A stretch of DNA of 3,685 bases from a virus (taxonomy: Duplodnaviria > Heunggongvirae > Uroviricota > Caudoviricetes), in the IMG/VR virus record IMGVR_UViG_2667527792_000011, positions 1 to 3,685 of that record; one strand, 5' to 3'. A program made the position numbers and the translations under genes. Positions 1 through 3,685 of the stretch are shown here, piece after piece. The stretch's first letter is position 1. Each line of letters starts with the position of its first letter. The notes under the pieces are model-generated. The model saw only the letters and a program-made list of their open reading frames with translations, searched no databases and had not been told where the DNA came from.

Positions 1-450
1 TCAAAGCGCCTTCAGCTGTACTGGCATAACGACATTTATACTGTCGTATAAAATTCGACTGGCAAATCTGGCACTCTCTCCGGCCAGGTGAACCAGTCGT
101 TTTTTTTTGAATTTTATAAGAGCTATAAAAAACGGTGCGAACGCTGTTTTCTTAAGCACTTTTCCGCACAACTTATCTTCATTCGTGCTGTGGACTGCAG
201 GCTTTAATGATAAGATGAGAATCGCAGCAACTTGTCGCGCCAATCGAGCCATGTCGTCGTCAACGACCCCCCATTCAAGAACAGCAAGCAGCATTGAGAA
301 CTTGGGAATCCAGTCTCTCTTCCACCTGCTGATCTGCGACTTATCAACTCCCACAGCTTCCGCTGTCTTCTCAGTTCCAAGCATTGCGATTTTGTTAAGC
401 AACGCACTCTCGATTCGTAGTGCCTCGTTGCGTTTGTTTGCACGAACCAT
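1..450 (-). CDS. cII: cII-type transcriptional activator; N-terminal ~78 aa match lambda CII, C-terminal ~71 aa are unrelated (possible fusion or truncation product)
   Basis: Minus-strand ORF. Translation from the ATG at 448-450 reads MVRANKRNEALRIESALLNKIAMLGTEKTAEAVGVDKSQISRWKRDWIPKFSMLLAVLEWGVVDDDMARLARQVAAIL, matching lambda CII as I recall it, then diverges (ILSLKPAVH...) and runs to a stop at 1-3. The SD-like TAAGGAAATACTTACAT precedes the ATG on the minus strand. The ORF track starts this frame at 510, but that extension covers nutR and is not coding. Lambda homology ends near plus-strand position 216. Confidence 0.7.
   Translation of the reverse strand: MVRANKRNEALRIESALLNKIAMLGTEKTAEAVGVDKSQISRWKRDWIPKFSMLLAVLEWGVVDDDMARLARQVAAILILSLKPAVHSTNEDKLCGKVLKKTAFAPFFIALIKFKKKRLVHLAGESARFASRILYDSINVVMPVQLKAL
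57..108 (+). terminator. Putative intrinsic terminator: two-tier hairpin followed by a T9 run
   Basis: Plus strand: gactgg (57-62) pairs with ccagtc (93-98); inner stem ctggc (68-72) pairs with gccag (83-87) around a 10-nt loop; a run of nine T follows at 100-108. A plus-strand reading frame entering from the left edge ends at a TAA at 49-51, consistent with the 3' end of a convergent gene. Confidence 0.4.
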
Positions 451-467
451 ATGTAAGTATTTCCTTA
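428..467 (+). promoter_or_regulatory. pRE (repressor-establishment promoter) with CII-binding direct repeats TTGC-N6-TTGC
   Basis: TTGC at 428-431 and 438-441 separated by 6 nt, with a -10-like AAGTAT at 455-460. It lies on the strand opposite cII and points towards cro and cI, as in lambda. Confidence 0.6.
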
Positions 468-529
468 GATAACAATTGATTGAATGTATGCAAATAAATG
501 CATACACCATAGGTGTGGTTTAATTGGAT

Positions 530-561
530 GCCCTTTTTCAGGGCTGTGATGTGTAAGAGCG
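530..561 (-). promoter_or_regulatory. nutR N-utilisation site (boxA 553-561, boxB 530-544); the rho-dependent tR1 region lies just downstream, towards cII
   Basis: Minus-strand reading gives CGCTCTTAC (boxA) then GCCCTGAAAAAGGGC (boxB hairpin, 5-bp stem with a GAAAAA loop), located between cro and cII exactly as in lambda. Confidence 0.75.
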
Positions 562-568
562 GTGTTAT

Positions 569-778
<210 letters not shown>

Positions 779-793
779 TTAGTACATGCAATT

Positions 794-822
794 ATTATCA
801 CCGCTAGAGGTAAAACAGTCAA
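794..822 (-). promoter_or_regulatory. pR promoter (drives cro and cII)
   Basis: Minus-strand -35 TTGACT (plus 817-822) and -10 GATAAT (plus 794-799) with a 17-bp spacer; overlaps OR1 and OR2. Confidence 0.8.
796..812. promoter_or_regulatory. Operator OR1 (variant)
   Basis: 17-mer tatcaccgctagaggta; the lambda OR1 I recall is TATCACCGCCAGAGGTA, so there is one substitution, at position 10. Confidence 0.8.
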
Positions 823-834
823 CACGCACGGTGT

Positions 835-836
<2 letters not shown>
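820..836. promoter_or_regulatory. Operator OR2
   Basis: 17-mer caacacgcacggtgtta, matching lambda OR2 as recalled. Confidence 0.8.
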
Positions 837-1605
<769 letters not shown>

Positions 1606-1622
1606 TTACAGGGCGGTAAACA

Positions 1623-2180
1623 TTGGCAAAAATAGATGATTATCAGCCAAGCCAAGTAGAAGTTGATAAAGTACTTTATTGTAAAAAAATAGTTAACTTT
1701 TCTGGCGTTAAATGGAAACAGAAACCAAGTCGCTCTGATATGTGGCTACAAGCTCATATCATCCCCTTGGATGAGGATTGTATACCTATACAAGGGCTAA
1801 AGTTTGAACTGAAATGGAAACCAGATCAGGATTCAGAACCTGATGACCCGATTTCTTACCCTAAAATAAATATTATTGCTTTCTATCATAACAAGAGGGT
1901 TTTCGCGGTAGATACCTATCACTTTGACAAACACACGAATAGTTACAAGGTCGATCATCCGAAGTACCAAGATATCATTTACGGTGCTCATTACCATGTA
2001 TACTATGAAGAAGCTGGATACTATAGTGATAGAATAGCGTTTCCAATCGAAGATGACATAAACCCAGATGACCTGGTAGGGTATTGGAATTACTTCTGTA
2101 AACATCTGAACATAACTTACTCTGGGAGAATACCTTTACCGCTTGAAGATGAGTCGGGGCAAATGGGGTTTGGAATATGA
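1623..2180 (+). CDS. Hypothetical protein, 185 aa, unknown function (cargo gene A in the rexA position)
   Basis: ORF in the same frame as cI, opening after a TAA at 1617-1619. The only in-frame starts are TTG at 1623 (GGGCGG 7-12 nt upstream) or ATG at 1740, so the start is uncertain. The C-terminal half is rich in Tyr, His and Asp/Glu (HPKYQDIIYGAHYHVYYEEAGYYSDRIAFPIEDDINPDD). No transmembrane stretch, Walker motif or resemblance to RexA that I can see. Confidence 0.6.
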   Translation: MAKIDDYQPSQVEVDKVLYCKKIVNFSGVKWKQKPSRSDMWLQAHIIPLDEDCIPIQGLKFELKWKPDQDSEPDDPISYPKINIIAFYHNKRVFAVDTYHFDKHTNSYKVDHPKYQDIIYGAHYHVYYEEAGYYSDRIAFPIEDDINPDDLVGYWNYFCKHLNITYSGRIPLPLEDESGQMGFGI

Positions 2181-2929
2181 TGTGCTCAACAGTGATCTCA
2201 CAACTAGGTTTCGAATGCCATCCAATAGGCAAGACCTTGAGAATTATCAGTCCATTCACTTACTGTGATGATGGAGAGCATGTCGGTGCCTTTATCCGTG
2301 AAGTCAATGGTAGGTATTTAGTTAGTGACAGATGCGATGCCTTAATGAATATGGAGGCAAGAGGGATCTCGCTTACCAAAAAACGACTTGATGAGATACG
2401 ACAATTACTGCTTAAAGAAGGCGCAGAACTCAATGCTCGAGGAGAAATCATTGCTTGGGCAACAGAAAAGGATGTCGGTGCGATTACATCGAACATAATT
2501 AGAGCTGGTATACTCGCATCAACTTTGTCGTTAGACTGGTATCAGCCAGTTCAAGCTGAAAAGTTTGAAAGTATGGTTATTGATTATCTATATCACACAG
2601 AGCTTAGAGAGGCACTTTCTCTTCGTGAAAACGTATATGGCTTGAGTGGACATCAAATTACCGTCCCTGTAACAATAAAAACCGACATACCTAAATACGT
2701 TTTTACATCAAGCGTGAAACACGGAGGAAGCTGGAATAGTGCTTACTCATTGCTTGGGAAACTAATTGATCTTAAAGCTTCAAGTGAGGAGTATAACAAC
2801 AGATTTGTTGTTATAGACAGCGAAGCAATTGGTGATCAAATGCAACAACTCTCCTTACTCTTCCATGAATCAAGCCAAGTTCTACCATTCTCCAAAAGAG
2901 AGACTTGGATTAAGAGACTTGCAGCATAA
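2177..2929 (+). CDS. Hypothetical protein, 250 aa, unknown function (cargo gene B in the rexB position)
   Basis: ATG at 2177 overlaps the gene A stop in an ATGA motif (translational coupling), with GGGG 10-13 nt upstream. The ORF ends at TAA 2927-2929, immediately before a terminator hairpin. No hydrophobic segment long enough for a membrane helix, unlike RexB. Confidence 0.7.
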   Translation: MMCSTVISQLGFECHPIGKTLRIISPFTYCDDGEHVGAFIREVNGRYLVSDRCDALMNMEARGISLTKKRLDEIRQLLLKEGAELNARGEIIAWATEKDVGAITSNIIRAGILASTLSLDWYQPVQAEKFESMVIDYLYHTELREALSLRENVYGLSGHQITVPVTIKTDIPKYVFTSSVKHGGSWNSAYSLLGKLIDLKASSEEYNNRFVVIDSEAIGDQMQQLSLLFHESSQVLPFSKRETWIKRLAA

Positions 2930-2932
2930 TAC

Positions 2933-2960
2933 AACCCGGCCTCAGCGCCGGGTTTTCTTT
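2933..2960 (+). terminator. Intrinsic terminator of the immunity operon (timm-like)
   Basis: GC-rich stem cccggc (2935-2940) pairing with gccggg (2947-2952) around a 6-nt loop, followed by TTTTCTTT. Lambda-like sequence resumes from this point. Confidence 0.75.
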
Positions 2961-3117
2961 GCCTCACGATCGCCCCACCTAAAAACACATAACCAATTGT
3001 ATTTATTGGAAAATAAATAGATACAACTCACTAAACAACGCAATTCTGATCTCTCCTTACATCGCCGAGGCAATACACTCACTCGAAAAAATAAATCCAT
3101 ATAAAAAACATACAGAT

Positions 3118-3134
3118 AACCATTTGCGGTGATA
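3118..3134. promoter_or_regulatory. Operator OL3 (variant)
   Basis: 17-mer aaccatttgcggtgata; the lambda OL3 I recall reads AACCATCTGCGGTGATA in this orientation, so one substitution. Confidence 0.7.
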
Positions 3135-3137
3135 AAA

Positions 3138-3154
3138 TATCTCTAGCGGTGTTG
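3138..3154. promoter_or_regulatory. Operator OL2 (variant)
   Basis: 17-mer tatctctagcggtgttg; lambda OL2 as recalled is TATCTCTGGCGGTGTTG, so the same G-to-A change as in OR1 and OL1. Confidence 0.75.
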
Positions 3155-3187
3155 ACACAAATACCACTAGCGGTGATACTTAGCTCG
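3152..3187 (+). promoter_or_regulatory. pL promoter
   Basis: -35 TTGACA (3152-3157), 17-bp spacer, -10 GATACT (3175-3180); expected start near 3187. Overlaps OL1 and OL2. Confidence 0.85.
3162..3178. promoter_or_regulatory. Operator OL1 (variant)
   Basis: 17-mer taccactagcggtgata; lambda OL1 as recalled is TACCACTGGCGGTGATA, so the same G-to-A change. Confidence 0.75.
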
Positions 3188-3220
3188 TCAGCAGGACGCA
3201 CTAACCACCATTGAAGGTGA

Positions 3221-3251
3221 GGCTCTTAAAAATTTAGCCCTGAAGAAGGGC
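3221..3251 (+). promoter_or_regulatory. nutL N-utilisation site (boxA 3221-3229, boxB 3237-3251)
   Basis: GGCTCTTAA (boxA; lambda has CGCTCTTAA) followed by GCCCTGAAGAAGGGC (boxB hairpin, 5-bp stem with a GAAGAA loop). Confidence 0.8.
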
Positions 3252-3361
3252 AGCATTCAAAGCAGAAAGCTTTGAGTAGCGCGAAATGCAGCTGCAAGAC
3301 AGCAACCGTGGGGATAAGCATCACGGCGCGTTACTCAAAGCTAACTGACAGGAGAATCCAG

Positions 3362-3685
3362 ATGGATGCACAAACACGCCGCCGCGAACGTCGCGCAGAG
3401 AAACAGGCTCAATGGAAAGCAGCAAATCCCCTGTTGGTTGGGGTAAGCGCAAAACCAGTTAACCGCCCTATTCTCTCGCTGAATCGCAAACCGAAATCAC
3501 GAGTAGAAAGCGCACTGAATCCGATAGACCTTACAGTGCTGGCTGAATACCACGAACAGATTGAAAGCAACCTGCAACGTATTGAGCGCAAGAATCAGCG
3601 CACATGGTACAGCAAGCCTGGCGAACGCGGCATAACATGCAGTGGACGCCAGAAAATTAAGGGAAAATCGATTCCTCTTATCTAG
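3362..3685 (+). CDS. N: Antitermination protein N
   Basis: 107 aa, MDAQTRRRERRAEKQAQWKAANPLLVGVSAKPVNRP...KIKGKSIPLI, matching lambda N as recalled, including the arginine-rich boxB-binding motif. SD AGGAG at 3350-3354; TAG stop at 3683-3685. The ORF track's upstream extension from 3272 is not used. Confidence 0.95.
   Translation: MDAQTRRRERRAEKQAQWKAANPLLVGVSAKPVNRPILSLNRKPKSRVESALNPIDLTVLAEYHEQIESNLQRIERKNQRTWYSKPGERGITCSGRQKIKGKSIPLI

Follow-up and report, generated by a model that had tools for sequence, protein, structure and literature searches.

A conserved two-gene module in the rexA-rexB slot of a lambda-type immunity operon is a candidate phage-exclusion system

The 3,685-nucleotide (nt) stretch analysed here, hereafter the window, is positions 1 to 3,685 of the Caudoviricetes virus record IMGVR_UViG_2667527792_000011. 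It is a lambda immunity region which, in leftward reading, carries cII, cro, pR/oR/pRM, cI, open reading frame (ORF) A, ORF B, a terminator, oL/pL, nutL and N. The subject of this work is the pair formed by ORF A and ORF B, which lies downstream of the gene for the cI repressor. An earlier note, made from the sequence alone, had described the pair as two unrecognised, translationally coupled genes in the place of rexA and rexB and had proposed that they form an anti-phage or exclusion system. The pair was found with the coordinates and sizes that the note had given it. The module and its boundaries are as follows (aa, amino acids).

1584-1622, + strand: 39-nt spacer from the cI stop to the ORF A start, the left boundary of the module
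1623-2180, + strand: ORF A, 185 aa, TTG start (RefSeq WP_001062368 has the same start)
2177-2180, + strand: ATGA stop/start overlap of ORF A and ORF B, read from the sequence
2177-2929, + strand: ORF B, 250 aa, with a DUF1828 N-terminal domain and a restriction-endonuclease-like C-terminal domain
2933-2962, + strand: intrinsic terminator, AACCCGGCC-TCAG-GCGCCGGGTT followed by a T-run (hairpin at 2933-2954), found in a terminator scan and shared with lambda

Pairwise BLAST showed homology with lambda from 216 to 1584, then a gap, then homology again from 2933, exactly where the terminator hairpin begins. Because lambda homology stops and resumes at these positions, the 1.35-kb A-B segment exactly replaces the lambda rexA-rexB segment, as the earlier note had placed it. 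The terminator forms the right boundary of the slot and the end of the operon, and the same hairpin is kept after the Salmonella version of the pair. At the left boundary, the spacer was identical in phage ev017 and in the Stx1a phage Stx1_121427, and the terminator scan of the window revealed no terminator-like site in it. The G+C content is 38-40% in the pair as compared with 45-50% in cI, cII and N, a low value that fits cargo probably acquired from elsewhere.

Like lambda RexAB, the pair consists of two genes on the repressor strand and fills the interval from the cI stop to the shared terminator upstream of pL/N, and its expression with the repressor in the lysogen is presumed by analogy. 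The resemblance ends there. There is no sequence similarity, and the sizes differ (185 and 250 aa for A and B, 279 and 144 aa for RexA and RexB). In lambda, 15 nt lie between rexA and rexB; A and B, by contrast, overlap. Both A and B are acidic and, as had been claimed, soluble, unlike RexB with its four membrane helices: the highest 19-residue Kyte-Doolittle mean is 0.45 for A and 1.19 for B, and both proteins lack membrane helices and a signal peptide. None of the RexA and RexB models in PADLOC matched A or B at an expectation value (E) of 1 or below, while lambda RexA and RexB, used as a positive control, matched their models at 9e-110 and 9e-61. BLASTP of A and B against RexA and RexB likewise gave nothing below E=1. 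A divergent RexAB was rejected on these grounds and on the lack of membrane helices, in agreement with the earlier note; the pair is an analogue of RexAB by position only and not a member of the family.

The two genes are strictly linked. The ATGA overlap is a signature of probable translational coupling. In all 80 IMG/VR loci that carry a relative of B, A lay directly upstream of it, and in 79 of the 80 the first possible start of B was at or before the stop of A. The order A-then-B with overlap was seen in the Aeromonas caviae, Thorsellia, Klebsiella, Salmonella, metagenome and Pseudomonas D3-like phage loci inspected. It was kept even where the identity of A to its counterpart in the window falls to 21-25%, in three metagenomic lineages. 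Linkage holds down to 22% identity for A and about 30% for B, and homologues down to 22-54% identity always formed an A-then-B pair. B starts with ATG in E. coli, Salmonella, Klebsiella, Aeromonas, Thorsellia and most other loci read, and no ATG start was visible in one metagenome lineage (L021). In several lineages the start of A is non-ATG. E. coli and Aeromonas have TTG there; in Klebsiella, Salmonella and one metagenome lineage it is GTG. Such a start may keep expression of A low relative to that of cI. Because the overlaps are conserved, we infer that translation is coupled and that A and B would form a stoichiometric complex.

The pair is also common. Its DNA was found at 99.7-99.9% identity in 241 of 5426 complete E. 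coli genomes (about 4%). Among the carriers are Nissle 1917, ATCC 11775 (the E. coli type strain) and Shiga-toxin producers, STEC1585 for one; commensal, pathogenic and probiotic strains are all represented. The same range of identity was found in seven phage records, namely two each of ev017 and ev207, Stx1_121427 (Stx1a), and PhiR57_1 and PhiR63_2, both ECOR-derived. B has protein homologues in Salmonella (84% identity), Klebsiella (65%), Aeromonas (54%) and Thorsellia (47-48%), and further ones in Yersinia, Erwinia, Serratia, Photorhabdus, Providencia and Pectobacterium. Hosts extend over Enterobacterales, Aeromonas, Pseudomonas and environmental metagenomes, and the pair was on phages in all loci. 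A evolves faster than B: identity is 70% for A as compared with 84% for B in Salmonella, and 36% as compared with 54% in Aeromonas. Against Salmonella, the nonsynonymous substitution rate (dN) was 0.18 for A and 0.09 for B, with the synonymous rate (dS) saturated; dN/dS was about 0.2 where dS could be estimated. Judged by its sequence, the pair consists of real genes that are under purifying selection.

In the D3-like Pseudomonas phage VB_PaD_phPA-G, an unannotated A homologue that retains the D/H/N/HxH signature described below overlaps the start of the B homologue (L022 2920-3504 and 2180-2830). An extra 216-aa gene, with a weak match to PADLOC PDC-S48 (3e-6), lies between its CI-like repressor and the pair.

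A two-gene operon with an overlapping stop/start and strict co-inheritance could also be a toxin-antitoxin-like addiction module, in which one protein is toxic and the other neutralizes it, and whose main role is stabilization of the prophage or incidental growth arrest. The faster evolution of A is in keeping with this, as co-evolving partners sometimes behave in this way, and many toxin-antitoxin systems double as defence systems. However, scans of Pfam, NCBIfam and PADLOC matched neither protein to any family of known toxins or antitoxins, and no DNA-binding antitoxin domain is present in A or B. Proteins of 185 and 250 aa are large for type II pairs, addiction is of little benefit to a prophage that is integrated in the chromosome, and a constant position in a repressor operon is no hallmark of such systems. 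We therefore consider a toxin-antitoxin-like role unlikely.

The earlier note had proposed looking for the pair next to different repressors, and this is where it was found. Directly upstream of A, on the same strand, the 80 IMG/VR loci carry genes of 14 sequence clusters. Seven of these clusters, accounting for at least 68 of the 80 loci, encode repressors, either helix-turn-helix (HTH) plus Peptidase_S24 proteins or short HTH_3/Phage_CI_repr proteins; typing was by Pfam scans of cluster representatives, and the counts cover clusters that were scanned or are of a type already scanned. In E. coli, the identical module occurs behind three repressors: lambda cI, as in the window; in ev017 and Nissle, a CP-933H-type repressor of 231 aa in which only the C-terminal half is shared with cI; and an unrelated 234-aa repressor in Stx1a phage Stx1_121427. 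Outside E. coli, the repressors are short and non-S24 in Salmonella and Klebsiella, and of the S24 type in Aeromonas, Thorsellia and Pseudomonas. In all, the repressors that precede the pair are of at least ten unrelated types, in hosts that range from E. coli to Aeromonas and Pseudomonas. In 5 of the 80 loci (for example L078 2052-2393), a gene for a 113-aa DUF3024 protein (2.9e-27) separates the repressor from A, perhaps as further cargo or as an accessory to the module.

In Stx1_121427, a non-coding stub of about 30 nt, corresponding to the 3' end of a lambda-type cI with its stop codon (L004 2971-3000, equivalent to window 1554-1583), sits between the unrelated 234-aa repressor gene and ORF A. 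The persistence of this recombination scar shows that the left boundary came in along with the module. Conversely, the exact cI allele of the window precedes other cargo elsewhere in E. coli prophages. Two such types of cargo were seen, a single 345-aa ORF of the mEp332 type (L025 4737-5774) and an overlapping pair of 144 and 206 aa (L027 4765-5199 and 5196-5816). Neither matched any PADLOC model, and both are further uncharacterized occupants of the rex slot. As the same cI allele carries alternative cargo, the A-B pair is dispensable for the genetic switch. That the slot is known for cargo, as had been stated, is borne out by published accounts of the cI-N interval, in which it is a mosaic hotspot where accessory genes, among them rexAB and bstA, are found (Degnan et al. 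2007, as cited in PMC8585504 and PMC7067206). With variable cargo in the cI-N interval already established, the presence of the pair is less surprising than the earlier note had taken it to be.

The invariable link to a repressor gene across very different phages raises the possibility that the pair is an accessory of lysogeny or induction, acting on the switch, repressor stability, induction or the establishment of lysogeny rather than on an infecting phage. Its expression would then follow that of the repressor. Nonetheless, the pair accompanies both RecA-cleavable S24 repressors and short non-S24 repressors, and because these are mechanistically different a shared regulatory partner is unlikely. 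Moreover, phages with an identical cI allele function with unrelated cargo, and lambda itself has rexAB at this position. A lysogeny accessory is thus distinctly unlikely.

The two proteins were then considered in terms of their predicted structures and conserved residues. The predicted structure of A is beta-rich (predicted local distance difference test, pLDDT, 82; predicted template modelling score, pTM, 0.81) and had no structural neighbour in the libraries searched. Residues K22, W31, R92, D97, N106, G121, H123, H125, F158 and P173 are invariant in A and H104 nearly so, giving a D/H/N/HxH signature. The family is small, with 20 clusters at E<=1e-3 in an exhaustive profile search of 1.84 billion representative proteins.

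The AlphaFold model of B (mean pLDDT 82) has two domains. The N-terminal DUF1828 domain (about residues 1-120) is YbjN/type-III-secretion-chaperone-like, and DUF1828 was detected by Pfam in 24 of 24 members of the B family. Its invariant residues are C3, C14, S25, P26, D32-G33-E34, D51, R70 and G89-E90. The alpha/beta C-terminal domain (about residues 128-250) has a restriction-endonuclease-like core fold. In an alignment of divergent B homologues, the canonical D...(D/E)xK motif was not conserved in this domain: only G155, S157, G158, P164, T177, G194 and D198 are invariant from G155 to the C-terminus, and H159 and K173 vary. B as an active canonical PD-(D/E)xK nuclease was rejected, since the catalytic motif is not conserved. 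For the same reason B is better described as a sensor or scaffold, whose nuclease fold may be degenerate, than as an established nuclease. Two cysteines right at the N-terminus of B (window 2177-2300), C3 and C14, are invariant down to about 30% identity. Together with the invariant histidines of A, these cysteines may form a metal site, perhaps one shared by both proteins.

Comparison with proteins of similar fold sets B apart. PD-(D/E)xK fold proteins include CARF-nuclease effectors such as Can2, and the canonical catalytic motif of this fold is the one not conserved in B. As compared with YbjN, DUF2170 and type III secretion chaperone-like proteins, the N-terminal domain of B is fused to a nuclease-like domain and has its own set of invariant residues, and B has no secretion-system context around it. 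In a sequence search of all Protein Data Bank chains, neither family profile matched any chain below E=0.2.

The earlier description of the genes as unrecognized needs amending, as they are already catalogued in RefSeq, in PHROGs and, through PDC-M24, in PADLOC; it stands in that these are function-unknown families only. RefSeq names A a 'hypothetical protein' and B a 'DUF1828 domain-containing protein', and PHROGs assigns them to the function-unknown families phrog_2017 (6e-67) and phrog_1960, respectively. NCBIfam gave nothing for either protein. Among PADLOC defence models, only PDC-M24 matched A or B. For B, the match to PDC-M24B model PDLC04540 (5.8e-10) spans residues 2-248 against profile positions 4-253 of 256; model PDLC04539 is matched at 1.1e-7, the alignment to both models being full-length, and divergent relatives of B reach 1.8e-15. 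For A, the match to PDC-M24A model PDLC04536 is weak (4.8e-4) and confined to residues 104-163, the C-terminal third. A and its relatives match three PDC-M24A models weakly (2e-4 to 7e-3), one of them over nearly the full length, and 5 of 15 relatives of A match Pfam DUF6978 below threshold. The pair shares with PDC-M24 the two-gene order A-then-B, an order that is assumed for PDC-M24 from the names of its components. It differs in having its own PHROG families and in forming a Gammaproteobacterial temperate-phage branch tied to a repressor operon. Because of the profile matches and the shared arrangement, we place it as a putative divergent branch of PDC-M24. The profile searches that the earlier note had proposed thus revealed no homology to a metabolic or structural family, the candidate PDC-M24 being the sole match in the defence library.

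These results bear on whether the pair could be a lysogenic-conversion moron that acts on host physiology (stress tolerance, virulence or metabolism) and has no role in conflict between phages. Some morons expressed in lysogens, among them lambda bor and lom, are indeed not defence genes (PMC7067206), and the pair is found in commensal, pathogenic and probiotic E. coli alike. Both proteins are nonetheless cytoplasmic, without signal peptide or membrane helices; the nuclease-like fold, the chaperone-like domain and the PADLOC match point to nucleic-acid or conflict biology; and the broad host range of a pair that is always on phages argues for a phage-centred function. We regard a role in lysogenic conversion as very unlikely.

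A parallel among repressor-linked prophage defences is BstA of Salmonella phage BTP1, which, like the A-B pair, is encoded directly downstream of the prophage repressor gene in an architecture kept across genera, and which presumably shares the repressor promoter (PMC8585504). BstA is a single protein, unlike the two-protein A-B module. The two uncharacterized genes downstream of cI in phage ST64B (PMC7067206) were considered as homologues and are probably not: tblastn with B against a phage collection revealed no Salmonella phage, a negative limited by the unconfirmed membership of ST64B in that collection.

The proposed transcription of the module draws on the rest of the immunity region, which is arranged as follows.

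450 (ORF start), minus strand: cII, lambda-type
569-769, minus strand: cro, product identical to lambda Cro
835-840 and 858-863, just upstream of cI: pRM hexamers TAGATA and TAGATT, assigned by identity to lambda
870-1583, + strand: cI repressor, 237 aa, lambda immunity, HTH_3 plus Peptidase_S24; first gene of the operon presumed to be expressed in the lysogen
3152-3180, + strand: pL, TTGACA-17-GATACT, among the oL operators, from the scan and lambda homology; outside the cargo operon
3237-3251: nutL boxB-type hairpin, from the scan of the window
3362-3685, + strand: N antiterminator, 107 aa, Pfam N36 (1.6e-26), the right flank of the slot

The flanks are as lambda-like as had been claimed. 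CI differs from lambda CI at 7 of 237 residues and N from lambda N at 1 of 107, Cro is identical, and both pL and the boxB-type hairpin were found. The promoter scan of the window found pR and pL and did not pick up pRM, whose assignment we presume partly from established knowledge of lambda. Rfam revealed no RNA family in the window.

At its left end the window is not phage DNA. Positions 1-216 match E. coli DNA at 100% identity, namely the final 29 nt of lpxC and the lpxC-secM intergenic region. At 216 this DNA is joined, with a 1-nt overlap, to codon 78 of a lambda-type cII, just past the lambda stretch GCCGCCGGGCGTTTTTTATTGGT, which we take to be the oop terminator. The junction yields a chimeric cII ORF of 149 aa (450 down to 1); natural prophages with 100% identity over 216-3685 have an intact cII of 97 aa. 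The exact lpxC/cII junction was not found in species-representative genomes, and the window terminates precisely at the stop codon of N. These features suggest that the left junction arose by rearrangement, by engineered insertion or as an assembly artefact, and they leave the finding on the pair unaffected.

Among phage records and complete E. coli genomes, coverage of the window reached 58% at most. Positions 216-3685 nevertheless match a complete lambdoid prophage in E. coli GCA_040813085.1 at 100% identity, and seven further loci in NCBI draft assemblies are 99.94-99.97% identical over the same positions. An artificial combination of lambda immunity and the pair was rejected on account of these loci, which indicate that the combination is natural.

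The slot is a recognized home of abortive-infection cargo such as RexAB and BstA (PMC8585504, PMC7067206). From the slot, the mobility of the pair between immunity types, its cargo-like base composition, the match to a PADLOC candidate and the domain content, we infer an anti-phage role. With a probability of roughly 0.55, the pair would be cargo with which a lysogen defends itself against, or excludes, superinfecting phages, a non-homologous functional analogue of RexAB, BstA and Stk. The interpretation put forward in the earlier note is supported to this extent and stands as a candidate.

As a defence system, the pair might work as follows. A and B would together be an accessory (moron) module of two genes that temperate phages carry in their repressor operon. 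In the lysogen, transcription of both genes along with cI would most likely start at pRM (and pRE) and run up to the lambda-type terminator. The YbjN/type-III-chaperone-like domain of B would serve as a protein-binding sensor or regulatory module, and its nuclease-fold domain would bind nucleic acid or act as a scaffold. A, by virtue of its invariant Asp/His/Asn/His-x-His cluster, would be a metal-dependent effector that B keeps bound in a complex. Some cue from the phage would free or activate the effector, and infection would be aborted. Control by the repressor promoter would restrict expression to lysogeny and stop synthesis on induction, sparing the lytic growth of the prophage itself. 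Only tentatively do we suggest this specific division of labour, a new two-component anti-phage system under repressor control with A as the effector bearing a D/H/N/HxH metal site and B as a phage-sensing partner with a degenerate nuclease fold.

Several points weigh against an anti-phage role. Co-transcription with cI is deduced from lambda and the absence of an intervening terminator rather than directly. The Asp/His cluster of A could be structural and not catalytic, and, as A has no structural neighbour, the reading of its function is unguided. The score of A against Pfam DUF6978 is 22 bits, below the cut-off of 29.6 bits, and its match to PDC-M24A is likewise weak. PDC-x systems are unpublished computational candidates (PMC11811056), and in the 2025 ECOR-phage records in which the pair occurs, both genes are still annotated by the depositors as 'hypothetical protein'. 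In the full-text literature, no functional study was found on DUF1828, DUF6978, PDC-M24, the two RefSeq accessions or the ECOR phage names.

One carrier of the pair, E. coli Nissle 1917, has a documented resistance to phages. Bury et al. 2018 (PMC5987069) reported about 200-fold resistance to lambda and stx phages conferred by a 'phage repressor (pr)' gene, EcN_1294. The quantitative PCR primers for EcN_1294 and one cloning primer in that study map to a cII-family gene in prophage 3 of Nissle 1917 (L002 3576-3900) rather than to the LexA-family repressor of 231 aa. Some 1.1 kb from this cII-family gene, in the same immunity region, is the A-B pair, which is outside the genes assayed in that work.

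The cargo carried between cI and N informs how prophages defend their hosts. The A-B pair is common in E. coli and strictly conserved as a unit across distant hosts, and neither protein has a characterized relative. Should the pair prove to have no role in defence, its constant placement downstream of many unrelated repressors will still need explaining. The pair may help to explain the prophage-dependent phage resistance of Nissle 1917, which was left partly unexplained by Bury et al. 2018 (PMC5987069). A demonstrated role in defence would validate the PADLOC candidate family PDC-M24, assign a function to DUF1828 and DUF6978, and reveal an effector fold unlike known nucleases or NADases. The pair would then be a new mechanistic member among the repressor-linked exclusion systems.

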